DNA of 64,000 nt from an uncultured Pseudomonadales bacterium (GCA_964432115.1 CAYSMC010000033.1:1123-65122), one strand, 5' to 3'; counted from the stretch's first letter, positions 1-50,092 are shown. The notes: generated by a model not told the origin, from the letters alone. Made by a program: numbers and translations.

Positions 1-63
1 TTAGAAAGAGCTGTACATTGGGCGACTAGTTTTAAGCTATTTCCTAAATTCATTAGAAAATTT

Positions 64-669
64 ATGGCTCAATTTAGTCGTAAACTACTAGGTTTAATGA
101 AAGCGCTTGATCAAGCTGAAAAAACTTCTATCTCACAAAGAGAAATTATTAGAATGTCTATCCAAAATATGGTTCATAAAAAAAACAGAACCGTTATCAC
201 AATTGGTGGCATGAGTATTGGTATTGGGGCAATTGTTTTTTTGGTATCAATAGGATTTGGCTTGCAAGATTTAGTAGTTTCTAGAATTGCTAAGTTAGAA
301 GAAATGAGACAGGCAGACATAATGCCTGATGCTCAGGGACAAGTATTCATTGATGACGGATCGCTTAGCGAATTTCAAAAAATTGGTGGAGTGGAAGAAG
401 TTTATCCTCTTATTTCGCTTGTGGGTCGAGTGAACATTAATAACTCAGTAACAGACGCCGTAGTTCATGGAGTAACAGGTGATTATTTAACTAATTCAGC
501 AATGAAGCCAATTAAAGGTGCTTTTTTTGAAAATAATCAAATTGCAAGAGAGCTTGATTCTGATGTGGGAGAGGTAGCTGGTATAGCTACATCGATCTAT
601 GAAGAGGCTGCTTATCAAAAAGGGGTATCTATTCAGGATTTGTTTTTTACCATAGATGCAGATACTTGA
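64..669 (+). CDS. ABC-transporter permease of the FtsX/MacB (LolCE-like) family, N-terminal part: TM1 plus the start of the periplasmic domain; ends at in-frame TGA 667-669
   Basis: N-terminus (RTVITIGGMSIGIGAIVFLVSIGFG) is the typical TM1 of MacB/FtsX permeases and is followed by the conserved MacB-type periplasmic-domain start. The ORF continues in the same frame after the TGA, see 670..1965. Confidence 0.6.
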   Translation: MAQFSRKLLGLMKALDQAEKTSISQREIIRMSIQNMVHKKNRTVITIGGMSIGIGAIVFLVSIGFGLQDLVVSRIAKLEEMRQADIMPDAQGQVFIDDGSLSEFQKIGGVEEVYPLISLVGRVNINNSVTDAVVHGVTGDYLTNSAMKPIKGAFFENNQIARELDSDVGEVAGIATSIYEEAAYQKGVSIQDLFFTIDADT

Positions 670-1965
670 TTGAGGGTTCGTTCTGGGCCAGGAACAGAGT
701 ATCCAATTATTGGATATACTAGAAGAATTGAAGGAAGCCAAGAGGGTGAAGAAGTTTGGGGCAGTTATTATCAATCTGAAGATGGGGCTGGGGAAGCTGC
801 TGTTGATAGTTCGGGAAATAATCTCGGACGTTGGATTAAAAGCAATTTTCCAATATGGAAGTCAACTGGATGTATAGATGATGATAACGTTGTTGAAGAA
901 GAGGGTTTATTAGCAGAATGTGAAGCTGGCTATCAAAAGATTGAAACGGTTGATGGACAAATGTGGATGGAGGGCTATATAGCAGAAATTGCTGTTTCGC
1001 TGCAAGAATTGCCCGACTTAGTTGATCCAAGAGTTTTGGGAGAAACAACTGAATTGGGAGATAATCAAGAAATTGCAACAGCCAGCGCAATTGATCAAGA
1101 GATAGTCGAATTTCTACAAGCAACGAACTCTTCTGAACTGCAATCAGTAACTAAGATTCCTCTAGATGCACGGGCTCAAAGACAAGCAGTAATTAATGAA
1201 TCGATGGCGCAAGTTTTAGGGATGACAGACGAATCTCCTATTGGAAAAGTTTTTCAAATTTCTTTTATTTTAGTAGAGGAAACTATGTCTGATGAGCAAG
1301 ATCAGAAGGTAGAGACAGAACCTGATACTTATGAAATTGTGGGTGTTTTATCTGGTGGTCAGAATCCGATTATTTATGTGCCATTTATTGATTTAAGGAG
1401 TTTAGGTATTGATCGTTTTTCGCAAGCTAGAATCGATGTAGAAAATACAGATGTTTTGCAAGAAGCCAGAGTTAAGGTGGAGGCTATGGGTTATGGTACT
1501 AGTTCTGTTGCAGATACTGTAAAACAAGTTGAAGATTTATTTGCCTCTTTGCGTCTGGTGCTGGGAACACTAGGAATGGTTGCTTTAGCAGTCGCAGCTC
1601 TCGGTATGTTTAACACGCTAACAATATCATTATTAGAGAGAACTAGAGAAGTGGGAGTATTAAAATCGATGGGAATGAAATCTAAAGAAGTGAAAAACTT
1701 ATTTCTAACAGAATCAATGATCATGGGCTTTTTTGGTGGAATAATTGGCATTATGTTTGGCATATTATCAGGAAAATTGCTTAGTTTAATTTTGTCATTG
1801 TTTTCTTTAATGAAGGGTGTGGGTTTCATTAATGTAGTTCATTTGCCGTTTAGTTTTGCTCTCACTATTATTCTCTTATCCTTAATGGTGGGTTTTGTTA
1901 CCGGATATTATCCAGCTAAAAGAGCAACAAAAATCTCAGCCCTTAATGCTCTACGTTATGAGTAA
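670..1965 (+). CDS. FtsX/MacB-family permease, C-terminal part, same frame as 64..669: SH3b-like/acidic insert followed by the canonical 3-TM FtsX domain
   Basis: The C-terminal roughly 130 aa (LRLVLGTLGMVALAVAALGMFNTLTISLLERTREVGVLKSMGMKSKEV...GYYPAKRATKISALNALRYE) is a textbook FtsX domain. The segment right after the TGA (RVRSGPGTEYPIIG) resembles a bacterial SH3 (SH3b) motif and is followed by a D/E-rich region. Confidence 0.6.
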   Translation: MRVRSGPGTEYPIIGYTRRIEGSQEGEEVWGSYYQSEDGAGEAAVDSSGNNLGRWIKSNFPIWKSTGCIDDDNVVEEEGLLAECEAGYQKIETVDGQMWMEGYIAEIAVSLQELPDLVDPRVLGETTELGDNQEIATASAIDQEIVEFLQATNSSELQSVTKIPLDARAQRQAVINESMAQVLGMTDESPIGKVFQISFILVEETMSDEQDQKVETEPDTYEIVGVLSGGQNPIIYVPFIDLRSLGIDRFSQARIDVENTDVLQEARVKVEAMGYGTSSVADTVKQVEDLFASLRLVLGTLGMVALAVAALGMFNTLTISLLERTREVGVLKSMGMKSKEVKNLFLTESMIMGFFGGIIGIMFGILSGKLLSLILSLFSLMKGVGFINVVHLPFSFALTIILLSLMVGFVTGYYPAKRATKISALNALRYE

Positions 1966-2004: not shown

Positions 2005-2385
2005 TTAAAAAAACAGCAATAAATATAACATTTGTATTAACATTTTTTTAAGTTCCTCAACAGTTTTAGCTTTTTTTAATTCTTTGATTTGATGGCCATT
2101 GAGTTGTACGTAATTTTCTACTCCGGCTTTTTTTGCCACTCTCATTTGAGCAGCTTTATGTCCATTGTTGTTGTCGTTTTTGCCGTTGCCAATTTCTACA
2201 TGCACGCTTTGATTGGTTTCTGGATCAGTTACAAAAAAATCCGGATGAGTAACCACTTTATCTTTTCTACCGTTATGATTTTTTACTGGCTCATCAATTC
2301 TAATTGTCTTAGCATCTTTTACAATAAAGCCTGCAGCCTTTGCTTGCTTTTCAAAAATTATCTCTAATGAGTGTCTTCTGCCCAT
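2005..2385 (-). CDS. hypothetical small protein; possible PD-(D/E)xK / Hjc-like nuclease fold
   Basis: 126-aa ORF. The N-terminal pattern RRHSLEIIFEKQAKAAGF and the HPDFFV...VHVEIGNGK stretch loosely resemble Hjc/Mrr-type restriction-endonuclease-fold proteins. I recognise no firm family. Confidence 0.35.
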   Translation of the reverse strand: MGRRHSLEIIFEKQAKAAGFIVKDAKTIRIDEPVKNHNGRKDKVVTHPDFFVTDPETNQSVHVEIGNGKNDNNNGHKAAQMRVAKKAGVENYVQLNGHQIKELKKAKTVEELKKMLIQMLYLLLFF

Positions 2386-2400
2386 ATCTTTAAAAATGAA

Positions 2401-3897
2401 TTACTTAATATATCTTAATCTACCTTCAACCTGACTTTGAATGTTTTGGTGAGTGCGCAAGTATTCTTCTAGTATTTGTTGGGCAGAAGTGCTAACAACT
2501 TTTGACTCGCCATGTTCTAACAGTTCTTTTTCAGAAATATTTAGATAAGCCTGACTATTACTAAAGTGATAGCCTTGAAGAGTCAGGGTGTAAATTGTTG
2601 TATTGTTAACATTTTTATTATTAATTTTTAAACTGCTCAATTTTTTTTGACCCTCATTGTAAACGGCTTCAACCTCTTTATTGATTTGATAACATTCACC
2701 CTCACTATTGCGATTGCTCGGACGCATAATGTAAGCAAAAATTTGCTTTAATTGTTGACCACTAACTTGAAAACGAGTTAAAGCGTCATCGTAGGGAAAA
2801 CAGGCAATAAAGTCTTTTAATCTTACTAAAGGACCCAGTTCTTTAACCCTGATTGAACCACTACCCACCAACATCACATCTGTTCCACTGGATTGAGTAA
2901 AAGCATCGGCTATTAAATTGCCCAAACTAGTTTCGATTTCTCGCTTGGGGTGGGTCAATTTAGTCGCGGTTTTGCATACTAAAGTATTATATTTTTCATC
3001 AACCTTTTTTTTGAAAGATTGAATAAATTTTTCTAAATCGTGGTCTGGTTCTGCTAAACTTTCATCAATGGGAATTAATTGCCAGTGGTAATCGACAATG
3101 CTGTTGGTGTCGTCATCAACAATAATGTCAAAGCGGCCAATTTGATCAGAACCTACTCCAGCCTGAGCGATTAAAACATTATTAACCATAGCTGGTTCTT
3201 TGAGTACGGTGTGAGAATGGCCACCAATAATCATATCCACACCCCACTCAGGATCCAACAGTTTAGCCAATTTTATATCAGACTCGTAACCAATGTGAGT
3301 TAGTAAAATAGTGAGATCAATGTCATCATTTTTGTAGGCATTGCAAATTTTTCCAACTTCTTGGCTTGCTTCTTCCAAATCAATAAAGCTACCAATTAGT
3401 TGGTCTTGTTTTAAGGAATCCATAATTTTCTCTGTGATAATGCCAGTAAATAAAACATCAAAACCATCCTTTTTTAAAATTAAATAAGGATTCATTAAGC
3501 GTTTGTTATATTTTTTAATGTAGAGATTAGCATTAACAATCGGAAAATTAGCCATTTTTTCTAAAAATAAAAGATGGGGTAAACCATAATCTAATTCATG
3601 ATTGCCTAAAGTAACAACATCAGGCGCCAAATAATTCATAATTTCTATGGTAGAAATACCTTTGTATTGACTGTCGATCAGTGAGCCTTGCAGCATGTCA
3701 CCGGCAATTAAATAAAAAACATTTTTTTCTTCAGCGCGGACTTTATTAATATATCCAGATAAAAGTGCTAAGCCACCCATTAACTTTCCCTTTTTTCCTT
3801 GGACTTCAGCCAGAAAATCACCATGAATGTCATTGGAATGTAAAATGGTAAATTTTTTTAAATTTTTTGGTAGCGCTTTTTTACTGTGTTTTAGCAT
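2401..3897 (-). CDS. bifunctional metallophosphatase / 5'-nucleotidase (UshA/CpdB-like)
   Basis: Calcineurin-like phosphoesterase motifs (HSNDIHGD, GDMLQG, GNHELD, GGHSH) are followed by a C-terminal 5'-nucleotidase substrate-binding domain. Confidence 0.8.
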   Translation of the reverse strand: MLKHSKKALPKNLKKFTILHSNDIHGDFLAEVQGKKGKLMGGLALLSGYINKVRAEEKNVFYLIAGDMLQGSLIDSQYKGISTIEIMNYLAPDVVTLGNHELDYGLPHLLFLEKMANFPIVNANLYIKKYNKRLMNPYLILKKDGFDVLFTGIITEKIMDSLKQDQLIGSFIDLEEASQEVGKICNAYKNDDIDLTILLTHIGYESDIKLAKLLDPEWGVDMIIGGHSHTVLKEPAMVNNVLIAQAGVGSDQIGRFDIIVDDDTNSIVDYHWQLIPIDESLAEPDHDLEKFIQSFKKKVDEKYNTLVCKTATKLTHPKREIETSLGNLIADAFTQSSGTDVMLVGSGSIRVKELGPLVRLKDFIACFPYDDALTRFQVSGQQLKQIFAYIMRPSNRNSEGECYQINKEVEAVYNEGQKKLSSLKINNKNVNNTTIYTLTLQGYHFSNSQAYLNISEKELLEHGESKVVSTSAQQILEEYLRTHQNIQSQVEGRLRYIK

Positions 3898-7774: not shown

Positions 7775-8530
7775 ATGACAAATATTAAACCTGCCCCTTC
7801 TCAAAATAGCTTTAATGATCCAGTTATGCCGACCGTTGACTTCAATTCACAGCCAGCTATCAAAACTGCTGTTCAATCACCAACGCCAGATGCTAAAGCT
7901 CCAGTTGCCAATCAAGTTCACGTGCCTAAAGAGCAAATAAATATTAATAAAAACAGAGCTTCAAAAACTGATTCAAATAAACTGTGGATAATCCTGTTAG
8001 TGCTTATTGCAACAATTATTGGTTTTTGGATTGGATATTTTACTAATGAATATTTTTTTCGGAATGATTCTAATCCAAACAATCTTATTGGTGAGGATGG
8101 GCAGACAGCTCCAATTGTTCCACCAACTGTAGAACCAGTTGCTGACCCCACATCAGAACCAGTTGAGGTTAATAAAGAATATATTGTTTTTAAAGATGAA
8201 GAGAATTATTTAAACGATGGCCTAAATTTTATTTCTGATGAACAATGTGTTGAAGATGAAATTGCTATTTTAAAAGCTATTGGGGATGATTATTTAACCA
8301 TTCAAATAAACGAATGGACTTTGCAAGAAGATTCTGGTGAATATCTTGCCGAATTAGTTGATTTTCAAGTTAAAGATCAAGAATGTATTGCAGTTAGACC
8401 AATTTGTCCTAATGTGTTAATTGAGCGTTGTTTCTCTTTAGAAAATATTGATGGGGTCTATCATCTTGATTACGAATTTAGGGAAGGGGAGATGATGCCT
8501 CAGAGTCCTGATCTAGAATCAGAACTTTAA
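7775..8530 (+). CDS. hypothetical membrane-anchored protein
   Basis: Pro/Ala-rich N-terminus, one TM (LWIILLVLIATIIGFWIGYF), acidic C-terminal domain with 4 Cys. No family recognised. Confidence 0.45.
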   Translation: MTNIKPAPSQNSFNDPVMPTVDFNSQPAIKTAVQSPTPDAKAPVANQVHVPKEQININKNRASKTDSNKLWIILLVLIATIIGFWIGYFTNEYFFRNDSNPNNLIGEDGQTAPIVPPTVEPVADPTSEPVEVNKEYIVFKDEENYLNDGLNFISDEQCVEDEIAILKAIGDDYLTIQINEWTLQEDSGEYLAELVDFQVKDQECIAVRPICPNVLIERCFSLENIDGVYHLDYEFREGEMMPQSPDLESEL

Positions 8531-8585
8531 GCTATTTTCATTCTTGAGCTTTGTGAGAGACTAACTTATATTGCAATATCTGAGT

Positions 8586-9914
8586 ATGTCAAAAAAGAAA
8601 TCCATTTTTATTGTTGTCGTTATTTTTTCTTTAGTTGTGGGTTTGACTGTGGGCCTGTTAATCAGTCATTATCGTGAGCAAATTCCCTTTATTAAAAATT
8701 TAATCAATAAACAATCAGTTAATGAGGAGAGCGAAAACACTTATTTAGCTTTTTTACAAGAGATTCGAGAAATAATTTTTGAAAATTATTGGGACAAAAT
8801 AAATGAGGCTCAATTTATTAAATTACATGTTTTAGCTATTGAAAAACTAACTGGAACTACTTTGGGTGATGGAATAGAAAATTATGAAGATTTAGACCAA
8901 AAAATTCTTGATCTATTAAATGAATATCAAGAAGAAGAGCTTAAACAAGATTTTACTGCCCAATTAGCAGATCTGGTTTTGACTAATTTAGAACCTTTTG
9001 GTCGGAGCCGACTTTATTCTCAGCAACTTGAGCAAGAATTAGTTGAGCGCGTAAGCAATATTGATCCTGAAGCTGATCATTACCAAGCTTTAGGTGTAGA
9101 AAAGAATGCATCGAGCGAAGAGATTAATCAGGCTTATGAGGAACAGCAGGAGATTTTGATAGAAGATGATGGTGAGGAGGCTCGAGCCAAACTAGCAGTC
9201 ATCCAACAAGCTCATAAAACTTTAGCTGATGAAGCTAATAGAAATCGTTATGATGAGGCAGGAGTTAATCCGACCATGGAGTGGCGTTTATTAAGTCCCG
9301 AAGTTTTCTATTTACATATAAAACAATTTTCTCCAAATACTGTTCAAGAACTTTTAGAGGTAACACAAAAAGTCGATGATCGGAGTGAAGAATTAGATTC
9401 TCTAATTTTAGATTTGAGAGCCAATGTTGGTGGGGCTATTGATGGTTTGCCATATTTTTTGGGTCCGTTTATAGGTCCAAACCAATATGCCTATCAATTT
9501 CTTCAACAGGGAGAGATTACTGATTACAAAACACGTAGTGACTGGTTGCCTTCTCTCATGCGCTATAAAAAAGTAGCAGTCCTAATTGACGATCAAGTGC
9601 AATCGACCGCAGAGGTAATGGCCAGTGTTTTAAAAAAATACAATGTCGGGGTATTGATCGGCAGCACTACTATGGGTTGGGGTACTGTAGAACGAGTGTT
9701 TCCTATCGAAAGGCAAATTAGTGACAGCAAACAATATTCGGTTTTTCTAGTGCATCATTTAACTTTACGTGAAGATGGGGTGGTAATTGAAGGTAATGGA
9801 GTTAATCCCATGATTAATGTTAAAGACGTTGGTTGGCAAAGACAGTTGGAGAGATATTTTGGTGATTCAGCTATTGTGCCGGCAATTATGGAACAATTTG
9901 CCGTTCAGGAATAA
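8586..9914 (+). CDS. S41-family C-terminal processing peptidase (Ctp/Tsp-like) with an embedded J-like domain
   Basis: N-terminal TM anchor. S41 motifs LILDLRANVGG and AEVMASVL...GSTTMGWGT. Residues around DHYQALGVEKNASSEEINQAYEE...RYDEAG align to the DnaJ J-domain but have IED where the HPD motif should be. Confidence 0.65.
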   Translation: MSKKKSIFIVVVIFSLVVGLTVGLLISHYREQIPFIKNLINKQSVNEESENTYLAFLQEIREIIFENYWDKINEAQFIKLHVLAIEKLTGTTLGDGIENYEDLDQKILDLLNEYQEEELKQDFTAQLADLVLTNLEPFGRSRLYSQQLEQELVERVSNIDPEADHYQALGVEKNASSEEINQAYEEQQEILIEDDGEEARAKLAVIQQAHKTLADEANRNRYDEAGVNPTMEWRLLSPEVFYLHIKQFSPNTVQELLEVTQKVDDRSEELDSLILDLRANVGGAIDGLPYFLGPFIGPNQYAYQFLQQGEITDYKTRSDWLPSLMRYKKVAVLIDDQVQSTAEVMASVLKKYNVGVLIGSTTMGWGTVERVFPIERQISDSKQYSVFLVHHLTLREDGVVIEGNGVNPMINVKDVGWQRQLERYFGDSAIVPAIMEQFAVQE

Positions 9915-10628: not shown

Positions 10629-12269
10629 ATGCTTAGGATTTTCAATTTACTGTATCAGAAAAAAACTAAACTCATTTCGCAAAGAGTTTACTTTTGTGAG
10701 TACGGAGCTTTTGTTTATTTAATAGTTCAAGATAAAGATACAGGAAAAATTATTAAATCGGCTAAAAGCAAAGATGGCTTTTTGTTCCGTAAGGTAAGGG
10801 TAAAAGAGGAAGTGGTCAAGCAGTATCCTCAATTAAAAAAGAAAAGACGAGCTTTTATTAGAGAGCGTTATGTGGATCATTTAGCTCCAGCCAGTGAGTT
10901 TATTGATAAATCCAAAATTAGTGTACAAAATGCTTTTAGAACTCCAGAGGGAGTGTTATTGTTTTACCATTATCATAATTATCAGTCCTATCAAGTTGGT
11001 GTAGCTGGTTTCACACATGATGACAATCCCCAATTAATTTGGCGCCATCACCAACCTGTTTGGGAGATGTATGATCAAGTGGCTGATAAAAAAATTGAAT
11101 TTATTGATTTGATAGAAATCAATGGTCAACTAATTGCCTATTGGTTAGTAGAAAATGAAGCAGTTTGGGCAACTGTATATCCGAATTATCGAATTACTGA
11201 ACAAATTGAAATTGTTAAAGGTTCACAACTTGATCGACCAAAAGCTAATCCATTAATTAGCCCTAATCCTGCTCACGATTGGGAATCCTTTACCACTTTT
11301 AATCCTGGGGCTCTCTATGACGCTGGAAAAGTTCACTTGTTGTATCGAGCACAAGGTCACGACTATGTTTCTTCGATCGGTTACGCCAGCAGTGCTGACG
11401 GGATACACATCGAGCAACAATTAGAAAAGCCAGTATTTATTCCCACCCAACCTTTTGAAATTCCAATTCAAGCTGGACAAGTCAATATGAAATTCATGTC
11501 TGCAGGTTATGGAGGTTGTGAAGATCCACGTTTAACTAGAATTGACGATCGAATTTACATGACTTATGTTGCTTTTAATGGTTATTCTGAACCACGAATC
11601 GCTATTAGTTCTATTTCGGTCAAAGACTTTCTTGATCATAATTGGTTGTGGACTCATCCAGTTTTGATTTCTCGACCGGGGGTAGTAACAAAGAGTGCTT
11701 GTATTTTGCCAGAAAAAATTGACGGCAAATATGTTATTTTTCATCGAGTTTTTCCCGATATTTTAATTGACTACCGCGACGATTTAGATTTCAATGATGG
11801 TCAATATTTGTCCTCTCAAAAAAAGATAAGTCCGCGCTCAGCTCTATGGTGGGACAGTCGAAAAATTGGTGTGGGTGCTCCTCCGCTTAAAACGAAAGAT
11901 GGATGGTTACTAATCTATCAATCTATTGATGACAAAGAAGGTCATCCATATAAGGTTGGAGCAATGTTGCTTGATTTGAACGATCCTAGCGAGGTTTTAC
12001 ATCGTTCTCGACAACCAATTCTTGAACCACAAGAATGGTATGACAATGATGGTTTTAAAGCAGGGGTGGTTTATCCTTGTGGCGCAGTGATTATTGGTGA
12101 AACTCTCTTTGTTTATTATGGAGGAGCAGATTCTAGAGTGTGCGTGGCCACTGCTAATTTAGAAGAGTTTTTAAATCAGCTTAAAAAAGAAGGTGAGGCA
12201 AAAGTTGAACCAACTGTAATTACCAAATTAGATCAAAAAAGTTTAGCTAAAAAAGGCTTTTTTTCGTAA
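10629..12269 (+). CDS. GH130-family glycoside phosphorylase-like protein (beta-mannoside phosphorylase family, DUF377) with a roughly 190-aa N-terminal extension
   Basis: GH130 signature SAGYGGCEDPRLTRIDDRIYMTY together with FNPGALYD and GAPPLKTKDGWLLIYQS, which are typical 5-bladed propeller motifs. Confidence 0.7.
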   Translation: MLRIFNLLYQKKTKLISQRVYFCEYGAFVYLIVQDKDTGKIIKSAKSKDGFLFRKVRVKEEVVKQYPQLKKKRRAFIRERYVDHLAPASEFIDKSKISVQNAFRTPEGVLLFYHYHNYQSYQVGVAGFTHDDNPQLIWRHHQPVWEMYDQVADKKIEFIDLIEINGQLIAYWLVENEAVWATVYPNYRITEQIEIVKGSQLDRPKANPLISPNPAHDWESFTTFNPGALYDAGKVHLLYRAQGHDYVSSIGYASSADGIHIEQQLEKPVFIPTQPFEIPIQAGQVNMKFMSAGYGGCEDPRLTRIDDRIYMTYVAFNGYSEPRIAISSISVKDFLDHNWLWTHPVLISRPGVVTKSACILPEKIDGKYVIFHRVFPDILIDYRDDLDFNDGQYLSSQKKISPRSALWWDSRKIGVGAPPLKTKDGWLLIYQSIDDKEGHPYKVGAMLLDLNDPSEVLHRSRQPILEPQEWYDNDGFKAGVVYPCGAVIIGETLFVYYGGADSRVCVATANLEEFLNQLKKEGEAKVEPTVITKLDQKSLAKKGFFS

Positions 12270-12330
12270 CCAGAGATTCAAGTTAAATATTAGTTACTGC
12301 AATAATAAGTTTTAAAAATAGAAAGCATTT

Positions 12331-14271
12331 ATGAGTCAAGCCAAGCAAGGTCTACAGTTTGAAAGACATCAAAAAAATCCAATTTTGTCTCCCAAGTCTG
12401 GTAAAGACTGGCAGGCTCGAGCGGTTTTTAACCCCAGCGTTGTCAAAGAAACTGAGGACAGCTACCATATGTTGTATCGGGCAGTGTCTAATGAAAAAGA
12501 ACAGACTGGTCAGTGGATGAGTTTGTCAACTATTGGCTATGCTGCAAGCAGAAATGGGCTTGATTTTTCAAACACTAGACAATTAATTGTGCCTGAATAT
12601 GATTGGGAAAAATTTGGCTGTGAAGATCCTCGAGTGACTTTTATTGATGGTCAATATTTTATTTTTTACACTGCCCTTTCAGATTTTCCTCATAGCGCAG
12701 ATGGCATTAGGGTGGCGGTAGCGATTAGCGATGATTTAAGAACTATTAAAGAAAAACATTTAGTCACTCACTTCAACGCTAAGGCCATGGCTTTATTCCC
12801 CGAAAAAATTAATGGTCAGTATGTAGCTGTTTTAACTCCAAATACCGATTTACCACCAGCCATGATTGCTGTTGCAAAATTTGATGAATTGGAAGATATT
12901 TGGTCGCCAGGATATTGGGAAAAATGGTATGAATGTATTGATCGTCATCAAATTAATTTGGAGCGTATTGACACTGACCAAATTGAAGTAGGAGGAGTGC
13001 CGATCAAGACTGAGGATGGTTGGTTGTTGCTCTATGCTCATATTCAAAACTATCCAACCGAAAACAAGCGAATTTTTGGTATCGAGGCAGCATTGCTAGA
13101 TTCAAAAAATCCTCAGGAGATTAAAGTTAGAACCAAGGGGCCCCTTCTAACCCCAGGTGTTAAATATGAGGCTGATGGCATGGTGCCCAATGTTATTTTT
13201 CCTTCATCAGCTTTGATTGAGGGTGATAAATTGCGTTTATATTATGGTGCAGCCGATACTCATTGTTCAGCTGCAGAAATCTCCTTAGCTGATCTAGTTA
13301 AAGAGATGAAAGCCAATCTTTTTAAAGAGAGCTATCACTTGGTCAAATATCATCGCAATCCAATTTTGATACCTCGCAGTGAAAATTTTTGGGAAGCCAA
13401 TTCAGTGTTTAATCCAGCTGCAGTATATGTCGGTGACAAATTTTATGTAGTTTATCGAGCCCAATCGCCGGACAATACTTCAACTTTGGGTTTGGCAGAA
13501 AGTGATGACGGCTTTAATTTCAAGCGTTACCACGAACCAATTTATGTACCACGAAAAGAATTCGAACAAAAAAGAGAACCAGGGAGATTATCTGGCTGTG
13601 AAGATCCTCGTATTACTCGCCTAGGAGATGAATTTTTGATGTTCTATACCGCCTACGATGGTATTAATCCACCAAGAGTAGCTCTAAGTTTAATTGCGGT
13701 CAATGATTTTGTTAATCATAACTGGCAATGGTCCGAACCCATAGTTATATCTTCACCAGAAATCGATAATAAAAACAGTTGCCTATTCCCAGAAAAAGTT
13801 AGAGGGCGCTATGTAATCTTACATAGAATGGCTGGTAAAGAGATTGCTATTGATTATCTTGATGATTTAAGTGAGTTGCAAACTGAAGGAGTGTGGTTGG
13901 AAAAAGAACAATCAATTGCTCCTAGAACAGAACACTGGGATGGTTTAAAAATTGGTATTGCTGGGCCACCACTTTTGGTAGATCAAGGATGGTTGCTGCT
14001 TTATCATGGTGTGTCAGATATTGATCATCATTATCGAGTGGGTTTCATGCTTTTAGATAGAGATGATCCAGGCAAAGTTTTGTATCGCTCACCTTATCCA
14101 ATTCTCAAACCAACTGAAGAATTTGAAAGAATTGGTGATGTTGATAATGTGGTGTTTCCCTGCGGGGCAGTGATTGTGAAAGGCACGTTGTTTGTCTACT
14201 ACGGCGGGGCAGATAAGGTGGTTTGTGTAGCCACAGCTGATTTAAGTGAGTTATTGGCGCAAATTAAGTAA
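12331..14271 (+). CDS. tandem-duplicated GH130-family glycoside phosphorylase-like protein
   Basis: Two complete GH130 repeats, each with a GCEDPR(V/I)T motif (FGCEDPRVTFIDGQYF and SGCEDPRITRLGDEFL). It is a paralogue of the upstream gene. Confidence 0.75.
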   Translation: MSQAKQGLQFERHQKNPILSPKSGKDWQARAVFNPSVVKETEDSYHMLYRAVSNEKEQTGQWMSLSTIGYAASRNGLDFSNTRQLIVPEYDWEKFGCEDPRVTFIDGQYFIFYTALSDFPHSADGIRVAVAISDDLRTIKEKHLVTHFNAKAMALFPEKINGQYVAVLTPNTDLPPAMIAVAKFDELEDIWSPGYWEKWYECIDRHQINLERIDTDQIEVGGVPIKTEDGWLLLYAHIQNYPTENKRIFGIEAALLDSKNPQEIKVRTKGPLLTPGVKYEADGMVPNVIFPSSALIEGDKLRLYYGAADTHCSAAEISLADLVKEMKANLFKESYHLVKYHRNPILIPRSENFWEANSVFNPAAVYVGDKFYVVYRAQSPDNTSTLGLAESDDGFNFKRYHEPIYVPRKEFEQKREPGRLSGCEDPRITRLGDEFLMFYTAYDGINPPRVALSLIAVNDFVNHNWQWSEPIVISSPEIDNKNSCLFPEKVRGRYVILHRMAGKEIAIDYLDDLSELQTEGVWLEKEQSIAPRTEHWDGLKIGIAGPPLLVDQGWLLLYHGVSDIDHHYRVGFMLLDRDDPGKVLYRSPYPILKPTEEFERIGDVDNVVFPCGAVIVKGTLFVYYGGADKVVCVATADLSELLAQIK

Positions 14272-44634: not shown

Positions 44635-47600
44635 ATGAAATTTTTTTCTCTATTAAAAAAAGTCTGGCCCCAGCTTTTTTTATTTCTTCTAGTAACCCTT
44701 CTTGTTTATCTGAATTTTACTCCAGCTACTTATTTAATTGGCTGGGATAATCTACAGGTTGAACTTGATCTCGGCATTAATCTAGAAAGAGCTTTTAATG
44801 TCTCTTGGCAGGAATATCAGGGCTTAGGTTTATTAGGAGGCATGGGACATGGAGCAGATCTAGTCAGGCAGATTTTGTTGTGGCCTTTTTCGCTTATCTT
44901 AAAGCAAAATTGGCTGCGTTATTTTTGGAATTATTTGGCTTTATTGTCTGGTGTTTGGGGGGCTTATAGTTTATTTGCTTATTTATTAAAGAATAATAAA
45001 CAATATCAACTTTTGGCTTTACTCGGCGCTAGTTTTTATCTATTAAATCTTGGCACGGTGCAAAATTTCTACGTTACTTTTGAGCCTTTTGCCGCTTTTT
45101 TTGCTTTTTTTCCCTGGTTAATTTATTACTTTTTAACTTATCTTGAACGATCCAACAAAAAAAATCTGCTGGGCTTTATCGCTTTTTCTTTATTAGGAAC
45201 AATTTTTGGCTATGTGCAGACGGTTTTTATTGTTTATCTGCTAGTTTTGTTATTAATCATGGCTTTTTTTCTGTTCAAGAAAAAAATTACTTGGAAAAAA
45301 GTAGGCTTAATTTTATTAGTGGTTTTTTTGACCAATGCTTTTTGGTTATTGCCGGTGGTTTATTTCACGATTTTTGCAAGTGCCACCACCCTAGCAGCCA
45401 AGATTAACTTGATGTCTACTGAGGTGACCTTTTTAAAAAATAACCAGTTTGGTAGTTTTACTAATTTGGCCACACTTAAAGGTTTTTGGCTTGATCATAC
45501 TGATTTTAACCAGTGGGGCAACAGTGTTTATTTAATGGATGTTTGGAAAAGCCATTTAAATCAGGGATGGCTGGCAGTTTTAACTTGGCTTTATTTTGCC
45601 TTATTAGTTCTTGGTATTGGATCATTATTTTTGGCTAAAAAGAGCCAGTCGCATTTGCGTCACAGCCATTTGTCAATTTTAGTGGTTTTTTTGTTTACGG
45701 CTTTTATTTTGGCCGGTTCCAATCCACCCTTAGCTTTTGTTTATGACTTTTTGCGCCAAGTGGTGCCTTTATTTGGTCAAATATTTCGCTCAGCCTTTAC
45801 CAAATGGATCGTTCCCTACAGCTTATTTTATAGCTTGTTGTTGACTTTTGGTTTAGCTTTTCTTTTTTCTTTTTTCAAAAAGAAAATCTGGCAATTTCTT
45901 ATAGCCGGCGCATTTTTCTTATCTTTAATTTTTTATTCCTTACCTAGTTTTACTGGTAATTTCTTTTATTCTCGCTTGCGAGTGAGTGTTCCCGATGCCT
46001 ATTTTCAAGTGTTTGATTATTTTAAAAATGAGGCGCCAGAGAGTAGTCGGATTGCTAATTTGCCTCAGCATACTTTTTATGGTTGGCAATGGAATGATTG
46101 GGGTTATCGTGGCTCTGGTTTTATTTGGTACGGGATTAAACAGCCAATTTTAGATCGGGCTTTTGATGTCTGGAGTGAGGCCAGCGAGCGCTATTATTGG
46201 CAATTACAGGCAGCGCTAGATAAAAAGGATATTGCTGCATTGGAAAATGTTTTAGCTCAATATGCAGTTGATTATTTGCTACTTGATGAATCAATTATTA
46301 ATCGCAATACCAAAAAGCCTTTTAATTATCAGGCACTCAAAGAGTTTTTACAAAGTGCAGACAATATCGAATTAATTGAGCAATATGATTTTATAAGTAT
46401 TTATCGGGTTAATAATCAAGCACAAGAAAAGAGCCAGGACTTTATTACTTTGTATAAAGATTTGCCTTTGCTAGCCAATGACTATCGTTTTGCTTGGTCT
46501 GATCAAGCCTTTAGTGACTTTGGCCATTATTTAACTATGGATAATCATAATTTCTCTATTGAAGATCTGAATATTGATGCCATTTATCCCTTTCCCGCCC
46601 TGTTTAGCAACCATTGGCAGGAGGATTTAGAATTTTCTTTAACCAAAGATGACAGCTACTTTTATCTAAGTAGTTTGAAAGACAGCCCAAGCGCCGATTT
46701 TCAATTGCAGTTAGCAGATTTGATGAAATCTGAAGAGCAGTTGCCTTTTCGCTTAACTTGGGTAGTGGAGGATAATTTGGCGAAACTCAATTTTAGCTTG
46801 CTAGCCCCAGAAATTATTGATAGCCAGCAAGTAACTCATTTTACTCTAGAGAAAGAATTTATTTTTGATGCGCGATTGTGTATGGCTAGCGAAACTTGTT
46901 ATATCAACATCAATAATCAGCTACTTACTCAATTAGGTGAGAGTGGTGAACTGGATTTATTATTAAGCACCAGTGTTCCCAACAGCATTGCCCTTAGTAG
47001 CGAGCAAAAAACTGCTTATTTCGACTATGCTTTTTTTGATTTAAATCTTTACAATTTGATCGTTGAGCAAAAACCCTATCGGGGAGATAGCCAGCTAAAA
47101 GTTAAAATCCCCAAAGTCATCTTGCAAAGCAATGTGTTAGTTAGTGAACTTAATCTTTTTGAGCCAGTCGATTGTCGGCCACTGCAAGAAGGTTTGGTGG
47201 CTAAAGAACAGTGGGATGAGGGGACTTTTTATCAGGCGGTTGGCACTAGTGTTTGTGATCATTTCTATTTGGCTAATTTAGCTCATAATTTAGGCTATCT
47301 GATTAAGCTAGATGCGCAGAATTTAGCTAGTTTGCCAGCCATTTTTGCGGTGCAGTCAGACAGCATTGGTCGTAGTCCTTTAGAGACCTATTTAAGTGAG
47401 GGAGTTAATTACCACATATTGCCTCCGACTGAGGATTTCAATCAAGGTTACACCCTGTATTTTTCCACTGATTCTTATGGTTGGGAAATCAATAATAACC
47501 TAATCAAGTCTGTGGAAGTTTTCTTTTTCCCCTACAATTTCCTAAAAGAATTGCGCTGGCAAAAAACTCAAGCACCGGTTTTGCCCAATCAGTTGAGTAA

Positions 47601-47925
47601 TTGTGATTTTAGCGTTAACAAAAAAGCTCTTTGGTTATATCAAATTGATTTGCCAACTAATTGTGATGCTCAATATTTAAGCTTAGCTCAGGCTTATGAC
47701 GGGGCTTGGTTGGCTTACCAAGATGGGCAAAGACTTAAACAAGCCAAAGTAAATAATTGGGCCAATGCTTGGTTCTTAGACAATCAAGACAGTGAAAGTC
47801 GAATTTATCTTTTCTTTTGGCCACAATTACTTCAATATTTTGGCTTTTTACTGATCGTTATTAGTTTATTTTTCTTATTGCTAAAATTGCGAAAAAAGCG
47901 ACCAGATCGTTTAAAAAGCAATTAA
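44635..47925 (+). CDS. very large polytopic membrane protein (about 14 TM N-terminal region + roughly 600-aa extracytoplasmic domain + C-terminal TM); putative GT-C/YfhO-like glycan polymerase or transferase
   Basis: 1096-aa ORF. The hydrophobic N-terminal half resembles GT-C family membrane glycosyltransferases. No specific family recognised. Confidence 0.55.
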   Translation: MKFFSLLKKVWPQLFLFLLVTLLVYLNFTPATYLIGWDNLQVELDLGINLERAFNVSWQEYQGLGLLGGMGHGADLVRQILLWPFSLILKQNWLRYFWNYLALLSGVWGAYSLFAYLLKNNKQYQLLALLGASFYLLNLGTVQNFYVTFEPFAAFFAFFPWLIYYFLTYLERSNKKNLLGFIAFSLLGTIFGYVQTVFIVYLLVLLLIMAFFLFKKKITWKKVGLILLVVFLTNAFWLLPVVYFTIFASATTLAAKINLMSTEVTFLKNNQFGSFTNLATLKGFWLDHTDFNQWGNSVYLMDVWKSHLNQGWLAVLTWLYFALLVLGIGSLFLAKKSQSHLRHSHLSILVVFLFTAFILAGSNPPLAFVYDFLRQVVPLFGQIFRSAFTKWIVPYSLFYSLLLTFGLAFLFSFFKKKIWQFLIAGAFFLSLIFYSLPSFTGNFFYSRLRVSVPDAYFQVFDYFKNEAPESSRIANLPQHTFYGWQWNDWGYRGSGFIWYGIKQPILDRAFDVWSEASERYYWQLQAALDKKDIAALENVLAQYAVDYLLLDESIINRNTKKPFNYQALKEFLQSADNIELIEQYDFISIYRVNNQAQEKSQDFITLYKDLPLLANDYRFAWSDQAFSDFGHYLTMDNHNFSIEDLNIDAIYPFPALFSNHWQEDLEFSLTKDDSYFYLSSLKDSPSADFQLQLADLMKSEEQLPFRLTWVVEDNLAKLNFSLLAPEIIDSQQVTHFTLEKEFIFDARLCMASETCYININNQLLTQLGESGELDLLLSTSVPNSIALSSEQKTAYFDYAFFDLNLYNLIVEQKPYRGDSQLKVKIPKVILQSNVLVSELNLFEPVDCRPLQEGLVAKEQWDEGTFYQAVGTSVCDHFYLANLAHNLGYLIKLDAQNLASLPAIFAVQSDSIGRSPLETYLSEGVNYHILPPTEDFNQGYTLYFSTDSYGWEINNNLIKSVEVFFFPYNFLKELRWQKTQAPVLPNQLSNCDFSVNKKALWLYQIDLPTNCDAQYLSLAQAYDGAWLAYQDGQRLKQAKVNNWANAWFLDNQDSESRIYLFFWPQLLQYFGFLLIVISLFFLLLKLRKKRPDRLKSN

Positions 47926-47950
47926 TTTCTTAATTTGCTATACTAAAGTT

Positions 47951-50092
47951 GTGCTAAAAAACCATCTCTTATTAAAAATTAAAACCAGCAAGGACAGTGA
48001 CGAGACTGAAGAAGCAGCAGTTCAGCTGTTTTCGACTCTTCCCAAGTTAAAAAATAGCTTATTTGACAAGTTGCAGGGCAAGAATGAGAGTTTAAGTTTT
48101 GAAATTTTGGTTAAAGAGCAAAACATTCATTTTCTAGTTCAGGTGCCGGCCAGACTCTTAGAATATTTCAAAGGAGCAATCCAGGCCAGTTATCCTGAGG
48201 CGGTGATTGAAAAAATGATTACTGATCCGGTAGATCTGTTTTTTGCTAAAGATCAGCAATTGACTGTAGCCAGCTTGAAATTAAAAAATCATAGTTACTT
48301 GCCGCTTAAAACCTATCAAGATTTTAGTGAGATCGATCCTTTATCGACGTTGATGTCGACCTTGTCTAAAAATCAAGGGCAGGACGCTATTTTAGTGCAA
48401 GTATTGTTATCTAATGACTTGGGTTTAATGTTGGGAAAGCAAAGTTTATCTAGCGAAGACTTAGTTGATCACCCTCAACAAGCTTTAATTAAGCAAAAAA
48501 TGGAACAGCGCCAATTAAGAGCTGCTTTTAAAATTGCGGTAGTGACTGATGATAAAAAAAGAAGCAAACTGCTGTTAAGCAATATTGCCGCTGCTTATCA
48601 AGCCACCTCCAAAAGTGAAAGCAATGAGTTGGCTTTAAAAAAATGCCATTTATTTAAAAAATGCTTTTTAAAAAGCATGAAAAAGCGCAGTTTGAAGATG
48701 TCTCCTAGTTTGATTTTAAGTGTTGATGAATTGGCTACGCTTTATCATTTTCCTAGCCAAAAATTAAGTAATATTAAGAATATTTCCTGGGGTAAGAAAA
48801 TCCTTGGTGAAGCGCCAGATAATTTACCGATAGTTAGTGCTGACAGTTCAGATAAAACTAAAAACGAAATTAATATTATTGGCGAGACTGTTTATAAAAA
48901 TCGCTCTGTCAAATATGGCTTATTAAATGCTGATCGGCGTCGTCATGTCTATGTGATTGGTAAAACTGGTACTGGTAAATCTACTTTGTTGGCTAACATG
49001 GCCATTAATGATCTCAAGCACAATAAGGGCTTGTGTGTTATTGATCCGCATGGGGATTTAGTTGAAACCTTACTAGATTATATTCCCAAGCATCGCATTA
49101 ATGACGTGGTTTATTTTGATCCAGCCGATACTGAGCGAACGGTGCAAATTAACCTCTTTGAGGGGGAGAATGTTGTTCACCGCGAGCTAATTGCGTCTGG
49201 AATAATTTCTGTCTTTAAAAAACTTTATGGTTACTCTTGGGGGCCAAGACTTGAGTATATTTTGCGCAATTGTCTGCTAACTTTATTAAAAAGCGAAAAA
49301 GCCAAGTTATCTGACGTTGTAGATCTGCTAACCGATGAAAAATTCCGCGAAAAAGTTATCAGCAAACTTAATGATCCAATTCTCAAAAACTTTTGGGTCA
49401 ATGAATATAACAAAATGCACGATCGCCAGCGCCAAGAACAGATTGCTTCAATCCTCAACAAAGTTGGTCAATTTGTCTCTTCGCCACTGGTGCGCAATGT
49501 GGTTAATACCACCCAGTCTTCTTTTAGCATTGAACAATTAATGGACGAGGGCAAGATTTTATTGATTAATTTATCTCAAGGACGTTTGGGTGAGGATAAT
49601 GCCACTCTGTTGGGGGCAATGATGATTACTAAAATTCAATTAGCGGCCATGGCTAGAGTCAATACTAGTGAAGAAAAGCGCCGAGATTTTTATCTTTATG
49701 TTGATGAGTTTCAAAATTTTGCTACCGATGCTTTTGTCAAAATTTTGTCTGAAGCCCGTAAGTATCGACTTAATTTAATTTTGGCTAACCAATATATTGA
49801 TCAAATTCCTGAGGAAGTGCGCAATGCTATTTTTGGTAACTGTGGCAATATTATTAGTTTTGTGATGGGGGCTGGTGATGCTAACTATTTTCAAGCTGAA
49901 TATGGTGGACTTTATACTCAAGATGATTTGCTTAATTTAGATAAATATCAAGTCATTAATAAAATTTCGATTGATAATGTGCTGAGTCGACCCTTTCCTG
50001 CCTATACTTTACCTTTGGCGAGCAGTAAAAACCAAAATCGAGCAAAGGTGATTCGCAATAGTCGGGAACGCTACGCTAAAAAAAAATATTAG
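47951..50092 (+). CDS. P-loop ATPase of the TraD/VirD4/HerA (type IV secretion system DNA-binding / DUF87) superfamily with a roughly 300-aa N-terminal domain of unknown function
   Basis: Walker A YVIGKTGTGKST followed by VIDPHGD, Walker B LYVDEFQNFA, and a C-terminal RKYRLNLILANQ sensor region. No TM segments. GTG start. Confidence 0.6.
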   Translation: MLKNHLLLKIKTSKDSDETEEAAVQLFSTLPKLKNSLFDKLQGKNESLSFEILVKEQNIHFLVQVPARLLEYFKGAIQASYPEAVIEKMITDPVDLFFAKDQQLTVASLKLKNHSYLPLKTYQDFSEIDPLSTLMSTLSKNQGQDAILVQVLLSNDLGLMLGKQSLSSEDLVDHPQQALIKQKMEQRQLRAAFKIAVVTDDKKRSKLLLSNIAAAYQATSKSESNELALKKCHLFKKCFLKSMKKRSLKMSPSLILSVDELATLYHFPSQKLSNIKNISWGKKILGEAPDNLPIVSADSSDKTKNEINIIGETVYKNRSVKYGLLNADRRRHVYVIGKTGTGKSTLLANMAINDLKHNKGLCVIDPHGDLVETLLDYIPKHRINDVVYFDPADTERTVQINLFEGENVVHRELIASGIISVFKKLYGYSWGPRLEYILRNCLLTLLKSEKAKLSDVVDLLTDEKFREKVISKLNDPILKNFWVNEYNKMHDRQRQEQIASILNKVGQFVSSPLVRNVVNTTQSSFSIEQLMDEGKILLINLSQGRLGEDNATLLGAMMITKIQLAAMARVNTSEEKRRDFYLYVDEFQNFATDAFVKILSEARKYRLNLILANQYIDQIPEEVRNAIFGNCGNIISFVMGAGDANYFQAEYGGLYTQDDLLNLDKYQVINKISIDNVLSRPFPAYTLPLASSKNQNRAKVIRNSRERYAKKKY

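Follow-up and report, generated by a model that had tools for sequence, protein, structure and literature searches.

A TGA codon inside an SH3b-like module of a Microgenomates MacB/FtsX-type ABC permease: a probable young nonsense mutation

Gene organization at the locus

The first two kilobases of the window, the whole 64-kb stretch of DNA from an uncultured, ultra-small bacterium analysed here, encode most of a MacB/FtsX-type permease whose reading frame is broken by one in-frame stop codon. Frame 1 is open from base 1 to a TGA at 667-669 and again from 670 to a TAA at 1963-1965. The gene start was placed from two JGI contigs that match the window at 99.98% identity, L001 (IMG 3300001533, 23 kb) and L002 (IMG 3300077563). 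Both contigs put the permease ATG 110 nt before window base 1, so that the window lacks the first 37 codons of the gene. The window and these contigs together yield a full permease gene of 259 codons, the TGA, and 431 codons. Directly upstream, outside the window, both contigs carry an ABC ATPase gene (ABC_tran) that overlaps the permease gene by 8 nt and ends past its ATG. On L001 and L002, IMG (JGI) annotates two genes that are fragments of this one permease gene.

The 5' fragment occupies positions 1..666 on the plus strand, with the frame open from base 1, and corresponds to codons 38-259 of 691. This fragment covers the N-terminal helices and TM1 and runs through the first half of a MacB-type extracytoplasmic domain. 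TM1 (TVITIGGMSIGIGAIVFLVSIGFGL) lies at approximately 190..264 (plus strand) and consists of hydrophobic residues that hardly vary in alignments A1 and A3. This stretch falls within the long helix 108-143 of the structure model for the homologue P0001, and the TM1 boundaries are putative. An acidic insert of about 208 aa (residues 221-428; 550..1173, plus strand) lies within the extracytoplasmic domain. It includes an SH3b-like beta module (residues 245-376; 622..1017, plus strand) with two invariant cysteines around a variable acidic loop. The in-frame TGA (667..669, plus strand) stands at residue 260, in place of a conserved tryptophan codon. The 3' part of the gene (670..1965, plus strand) comprises codons 261-691 plus the TAA and encodes the rest of the SH3b-like module, a linker, the second extracytoplasmic half, and TM2-TM4. 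These last helices make up the FtsX-type C-terminal transmembrane domain (1570..1938, plus strand), which matches Pfam PF02687.

A sequence-only reading of this DNA had proposed that ORFs 64..669 and 670..1965 form one MacB/FtsX-type permease parted only by the TGA, and the present analysis agrees. The two ORFs share a frame, their fusion matches both FtsX and MacB_PCD, and 118 full-length homologues are uninterrupted at the junction. The full-length relatives listed cover 94-100% of the fusion, which argues, well beyond chance, that the two ORFs are one gene. Two details of that reading need correction. The first ORF does not start at 64 but extends beyond the 5' end of the window, up to the ATG placed from L001 and L002. 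Nor does the TGA mark the exact beginning of the insert, which starts about 40 codons earlier, near residue 221; the stop falls inside the module. The value for annotation is that the two ORFs are one gene and that the window lacks the gene start.

Placement of the permease family

The fused product scores 68 bits against Pfam FtsX (cut-off 25.5) and 67 bits against Pfam MacB_PCD (PF12704; cut-off 27), the latter in two stretches with the insert between them. Taken alone, the 5' fragment aligns to MacB_PCD profile positions 1-116 of 207 at 46 bits, and the 431-aa ORF reaches 69.8 bits against PF02687 (cut-off 25.5) over its residues 301-423. A database search with the fusion returned 481 significant relatives, and the full-length matches listed span 640-760 aa. 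Structural comparison relied on a predicted full-length model of P0001, a homologue with 85% identity (pLDDT 82.6). MacB gave the best Foldseek match to this model (5GKO, E 2e-19), with MacB entries ranging from 2e-19 to 1e-17. Further matches were the MacB entries 5LIL and 5NIK, then Spr0694-0695 (5XU1), LolCDE, YtrEF, and HrtBA.

More specific models are not reached. The NCBIfam MacB equivalog NF007826 gives 81 bits against a cut-off of 966, the LolCE model TIGR02212 gives 71-73 bits against 362, and the FtsX models TIGR00439, NF038346, and NF038347 give 22-37 bits against cut-offs of 225-255. Since no NCBIfam equivalog is reached, profile scores class the permease as a type VII ABC member and not as MacB, LolCE, or FtsX proper.

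The order of ATPase followed by permease recurs in four related loci (L003, L110, L111, and L112), so that an ATPase gene lay immediately before the permease in all contexts examined, and the ATPase is fused to the permease in P0088, P0098, P0108, and P0116. No membrane-fusion protein gene was found near the permease in the loci examined. The conserved unit is the ATPase plus the permease. Profile matches and the predicted structure assign the protein to the MacB/FtsX/LolCE type VII "mechanotransmission" superfamily, as the 4-TM permease partnered by a separate ATPase in a two-gene ABC system. The present copy lacks an uninterrupted reading frame, since the window, L001, and L002 all carry the TGA at 667-669.

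The acidic insert and its SH3b-like module

Splitting the MacB_PCD match into two halves, the insert runs from a linker through the SH3b-like module to a second, disordered linker and a helix. Aspartate and glutamate account for 20% of residues 221-428, compared with 12.6% of the whole protein. The acidic, flexible linkers flanking the module have low pLDDT and are predicted to be disordered in the full-length P0001 model. The D/E-rich segment described earlier is thus acidic as supposed, but it is not peculiar to this locus, as hundreds of Microgenomates homologues contain it.

Strand 1 of the module lies upstream of the TGA, and the stop replaces the conserved tryptophan just before strand 2. 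Invariant W, G, and Y positions characterize the module across homologues. The sequence-only reading had also suggested an SH3b-like motif after the stop, and here the evidence divides. The search of the fusion with Pfam models placed FtsX and MacB_PCD above their thresholds and SH3_3 (PF08239) below, at 13.8 bits against a cut-off of 27. Among 38 homologues, 12 gave any SH3_3 match, the best of them at 19.6 bits against the same cut-off, over a 16-residue motif. A profile of the module found no match among PDB sequences. The predicted fold, however, is that of an SH3b beta-barrel: an AlphaFold2 model of the 132-residue module, computed from a 38-sequence alignment headed by the 85%-identical homologue, has a mean pLDDT of 86. 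The module is hence best described as SH3b-like at the level of its predicted fold, with a sequence below the family threshold. The acidic loop bracketed by the two invariant cysteines is of low confidence in the model, and this pair probably forms an extracytoplasmic disulfide.

The module may have a cell-wall-binding role. By analogy with mechanotransmission in the superfamily, the ATPase would hydrolyse ATP to shift the outer domain. The SH3b-like module there could anchor this domain to the wall, or it could display a polymer or enzyme of the wall.

Distribution across the Microgenomates

A profile of the module retrieved only 148 clusters (50% identity) among 1.84 billion representative sequences, and ordinary SH3b proteins were not reached. 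Most of these clusters hold proteins that measure 600-1,000 aa and have the module some 200-400 residues from the N-terminus, deeper in those with a fused ATPase; the smaller remainder are short or fragmentary. Some members carry two tandem copies of the module. In one relative (L033), the module is missing in frame, which indicates that it is a discrete unit. The relatives belong to Shapiro-, Woese-, Collier-, Davies-, Roizman-, Gottesman-, Pace-, and Beckwithbacteria, a spread that indicates conservation of the module-bearing permease across the Microgenomates (CPR/Patescibacteria). At the level of fold, the domain idea put forward earlier is essentially correct; it describes a conserved family trait and not something special to this locus.

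Nothing specific was found in the literature on SH3b inserts in MacB/FtsX permeases or in CPR bacteria. This by-product of the analysis is more useful than the stop codon itself: a Microgenomates-wide MacB-type permease with an unannotated, cysteine-bracketed SH3b-like module, an architecture not found in the literature searched. The envelope of CPR bacteria is poorly understood, and these organisms live attached to other cells. Against this background, a wall-binding-like module on a mechanotransmitting ABC system becomes a concrete candidate for a part in wall remodelling, surface anchoring, or export across the wall.

Authenticity of the stop codon

The source is metagenome-derived, and one base separates TGA from the ancestral TGG. 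A sequencing or assembly error, with a true TGG codon and an intact gene, was accordingly among the explanations offered for the stop. Several observations make this account very improbable. The same TGA occurs in three assemblies, two IMG datasets among them, and the stop site lies outside any homopolymer. Moreover, the assemblies are not copies of one consensus, as position 2475 is T in the window and C in both L001 and L002. At least two distinct consensus sequences therefore carry the TGA, and a random assembly or sequencing error is unlikely for this reason.

The source genome was not present among the GTDB representative genomes. The JGI metagenome collection was scanned in two ways. An exact-pattern scan for the TGA site gave 0 matches, and a protein-based scan recovered relatives of at most 50% identity and one C-terminal fragment at 94% (L105), with no further contig of the same species. 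L001 and L002 are perhaps non-independent samplings of the population.

Ancestral state and age of the mutation

The residue replaced by the stop is strongly conserved. In an alignment of 118 full-length homologues (640-760 aa), the column for residue 260 holds tryptophan in 115 and phenylalanine in the remaining 3. The homologous codon in 87 related DNA loci is TGG in 74, TTT or TTC in 12, and TAT in 1; none has TGA. The closest relative, L003 (82% nucleotide and 85% amino acid identity), has TGG at the site. The orthologue comparison proposed earlier thus returns a sense codon in relatives, and the tryptophan found in homologues and in the closest relative points to a lineage-specific G-to-A transition, TGG to TGA, at an ancestral Trp codon. 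Among the options first raised for the stop, a real nonsense change is the best supported.

Comparison with L003 also bears on the age of the event. Within the permease, dN/dS is 0.14 in the N part, 0.086 in the C part, and 0.11 across the SH3b-like region; the adjoining ATPase gene gives 0.047. No second lesion was found in the 2,073 nt of the permease gene compared with L003. Low dN/dS values and the lack of further lesions suggest that the gene was under purifying selection until recently and that its disruption is recent.

As a separate observation, another relative (L030) shows a frameshift and an in-frame TGA at an invariant glycine.

Genetic code and termination

Some CPR lineages (Gracilibacteria and Absconditabacteria) read UGA as sense. 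This precedent, and the tryptophan aligned with the stop, speak for a local or global reassignment of UGA (to Trp as in code 4, to Gly as in code 25, or to selenocysteine). The window itself speaks against such a reading. Four genes besides the permease end in TGA, and each either completes its Pfam profile or has TAA or TAG directly after the stop. In QueA, the TGA comes one residue past the end of the profile (322/322), and the next gene is an unrelated helicase; in PCMT, it comes at profile position 206/210. The amylase gene has TGA followed directly by TAA, and the DnaG gene also ends in TGA. Across the 51 window ORFs, 236 TGG codons stand against this single in-frame TGA. No other in-frame stops or split genes were found among these ORFs, and wherever else two ORFs abut in one frame, they belong to unrelated genes.

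The organism uses the standard code, and TGA is a working terminator. Recoding, whether global or local, is ruled out by stop-codon usage, by the profile coverage at the ends of the TGA-terminated genes, and by the TGG counts; for global recoding, this confirms the earlier exclusion. Selenocysteine insertion was also rejected: there is no SECIS-like hairpin near the TGA, and the site is W, F, or Y in homologues and never C. RNA folding around the stop shows no structure beyond shuffled controls (z = -0.44), which disposes of a structured readthrough signal as well. Taken together, UGA reassignment in any form has next to no probability.

The 64-kb window carries neither tRNA-Trp nor prfB, and no release-factor gene was found among the ORFs scanned. 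Its only tRNA genes are tRNA-Arg(gcg), tRNA-Ser(cga), and tRNA-Ser(gga).

Consequences of the stop

The favoured interpretation, to which we assign a probability of about 0.7, is a young TGG-to-TGA nonsense mutation that has produced a pseudogene or a strongly reduced-expression (hypomorphic) allele, rather than recoding or a split at a domain boundary. We infer that the event is recent and that function has been lost or reduced. A single G-to-A change would have turned the conserved Trp codon inside the SH3b-like module into TGA. Under the standard code, translation should therefore mostly end after residue 259. The product of termination at codon 260 would comprise TM1 and half of the outer domain. 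Because near-cognate decoding of UGA inserts tryptophan, a small amount of exactly wild-type protein may persist.

How much such leakage matters separates this interpretation from its nearest rival. Natural misreading of UGA by near-cognate tRNA-Trp(CCA) might yield reduced amounts of wild-type permease, sufficient for the allele to be tolerated or even fixed. In E. coli, the endogenous tRNA-Trp(CCA) gives background UGA readthrough, and tRNA-Trp variants with a 4-bp anticodon stem increase it (PMC13092985). The stop here is precisely TGG to TGA at a Trp position, both halves are intact and bear the mark of past purifying selection, and at least two distinct consensus sequences have the TGA. 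Nevertheless, the base after the stop is U, and UGA-U is considered a comparatively efficient termination context in E. coli. There is also no stimulatory RNA structure, and TGA in 0 of 87 related loci means that nothing about the site is conserved or programmed. Typical background readthrough amounts to about one per cent or less. Readthrough with tryptophan at a low level is possible; a functionally leaky allele is unlikely, though it deserves some weight, and ranks below plain loss or strong reduction of function.

Two further points touch on this subject. At least two consensus sequences that differ slightly share the allele, with both halves otherwise perfectly intact, which would also fit a tolerated, still-functional allele. 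An unusually leaky UGA is possible in this organism, as neither tRNA-Trp nor prfB lies in the window.

A stronger form of the same idea would have the lineage decode UGA ambiguously, as a terminator and, at 667-669, as a usable Trp codon; either a weak RF2 or a tRNA-Trp prone to readthrough, such as one whose anticodon stem has 4 bp, would allow it. We regard such ambiguous decoding as highly improbable. If true, it would represent an intermediate stage of stop-to-Trp reassignment in an otherwise standard-code CPR bacterium. A search of the literature on UGA readthrough in CPR bacteria returned nothing specific.

The junction also invites the view that the gene is functionally split, with re-initiation at the TTG at 670 and assembly of two polypeptides into a working permease. 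That codon follows the stop directly (TGATTG). Shine-Dalgarno sites occur at only 7 of 37 gene starts in this genome, so a missing one is no counter-argument. However, the break lies within a small beta module, just before its second strand, and a split at this site occurs in none of the 118 homologues and none of the 87 related loci. A C-terminal piece would, moreover, have to move about 280 acidic residues across the membrane without a signal peptide or TM1. Under Sec/YidC topology rules, this demand makes a separately initiated, exported C-terminal piece implausible, and a working split gene has only a very slight chance of being correct.

On the favoured reading, there is nothing unusual in the stop codon itself, a single nonsense mutation in a metagenomic lineage. 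Tolerance of the truncation in one lineage hints that cells can do without the system in some conditions.

Comparison with known systems

MacB of E. coli, A. baumannii, and A. actinomycetemcomitans (5GKO, 5LIL, and 5NIK) shares with this permease four TM helices, a MacB_PCD domain between TM1 and TM2, an FtsX-type C-terminal TM bundle, and a partner ABC ATPase. Differences lie in the ATPase, which is a separate gene here and fused only in a few homologues, and in the surroundings, as the loci examined have no adjacent membrane-fusion protein gene. The permease additionally possesses an N-terminal helical extension of about 90 aa and the acidic insert of about 200 aa with its SH3b-like module.

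Gram-positive MacB-like systems offer a closer parallel in gene organization. Spr0694-0695 (5XU1), YknYZ (5F9Q), YtrEF (9O9X), and HrtBA (7W78) likewise consist of separate genes for an ATPase and a 4-TM permease in a monoderm-type envelope. They match the P0001 model at E values of 3e-17 to 5e-08, with only 10-15% sequence identity. No SH3b-like insert in these four systems is described in the literature searched, including a review of B. subtilis ABC transporters (PMC11466899).

FtsEX, which regulates peptidoglycan hydrolases in cell division, is also a member of the type VII superfamily. It acts on cell-wall enzymes through an extracytoplasmic loop, and an analogous loop mechanism would fit a wall-binding module here. 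FtsX structures nevertheless align over the TM region only (approximately 180-200 columns), and the extracytoplasmic domain of the permease is of the MacB_PCD type instead of FtsX ECL1.

Among SH3b wall-binding domains (lysostaphin, 4LXC/6RK4; phage endolysins; NlpC/P60 accessory domains; InlB GW), resemblance centres on the N-terminal motif of the module, (L/I)RVRxxPS...(I/L)GY, which recalls the start of SH3_3. Unlike these domains, the module has long extra loops and a conserved cysteine pair, and it is inserted in a transporter loop instead of being appended to a hydrolase. The wall-teichoic-acid exporter TagGH (5BND) has an extracellular SH3b-like domain (PMC11466899). As an ABC system that handles wall polymers and exposes such a module on the outside of the cell, it sets a precedent. 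TagGH differs in being a type V exporter whose module is a C-terminal appendage of the ATPase subunit, carried behind an extra TM helix, whereas the module described here is an insert within a MacB-type domain.

The SH3b-like module among relatives of the permease

The sequence comparison indicates that the SH3b-like module is a discrete unit, dispensable in some lineages, because one member of the permease family (locus L033, MAG CAZUOO010000001.1, 3449-5017) retains a single continuous frame but has none of the module, query residues 224-321 being missing. In each of five homologous permeases of 830-870 aa (P0121, P0123, P0125, P0127, and P0128), two segments align to the SH3b-like profile, a pattern suggestive of tandem duplication of the module in these proteins.

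A further permease relative (locus L030, MAG CAZENT010000010.1, 3797-5238) carries a frameshift in an A5GA5 run and, where an invariant Gly is expected, a TGA codon in frame (LRSL*I). TGA ends none of the eight long ORFs of this locus. The relative represents either a second decayed copy or poor assembly.

Many of the MAG records with a Microgenomates-type permease gene are titled 'Gammaproteobacteria' or 'Pseudomonadales' (loci L004, L007-L009, L013-L015, L017, L019, L025, L027, L029, L030, and L034), and isolates named HK-STAS-PATE-n are among the records so titled. These titles look taxonomically wrong.

Gene content and gene starts of the window

Position 2475 is the sole mismatch of the window against the two near-identical JGI contigs, L001 and L002, over the 4.8-8 kb compared. 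The window has T where the contigs have C, a difference that translates into Ile/Val in a 5'-nucleotidase-like gene (2401-3897, minus strand). Between this gene and the permease gene, and convergent to the latter, lies a 126-aa ORF (2005-2385, minus strand) that is a gene call in both JGI contigs and has no Pfam match.

Of 37 gene starts spread over the window (e.g., those at 7775, 25069, 28266, 40110, and 54581), only 7 possess a Shine-Dalgarno-like motif, and at many of the starts a TATAAT-like box lies 6-15 nt 5' of the ATG. Together, the rarity of the former and the proximity of the latter suggest that mRNAs of the window are leaderless or possess a very short leader.

Other genes of the window include an ORF that joins an S41 peptidase with a DnaJ (J) domain (8571-9914), an unusual pairing, and two neighboring GH130 (mannoside phosphorylase-type) genes (10629-14271), the second of which has two regions of match to the GH130 profile. 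Further downstream, in 44635-50092, an ORF of 1,096 aa that matches no Pfam family precedes a gene for a VirD4/TraG-like coupling protein, assigned by TrwB_AAD_bind and DUF87.

Surroundings of the ATPase-permease pair in the P0040 lineage

In the lineage of the homologous permease P0040 (loci L111, 6217-14380, and L112, 4433-12597), the ATPase-permease pair has a secreted protein of ~1,500 aa on one side and, on the other, a type IV secretion-like cluster, which comprises TrbC, TrbL, a TraC-like protein, a VirB4-like ATPase, and an M23 peptidase.
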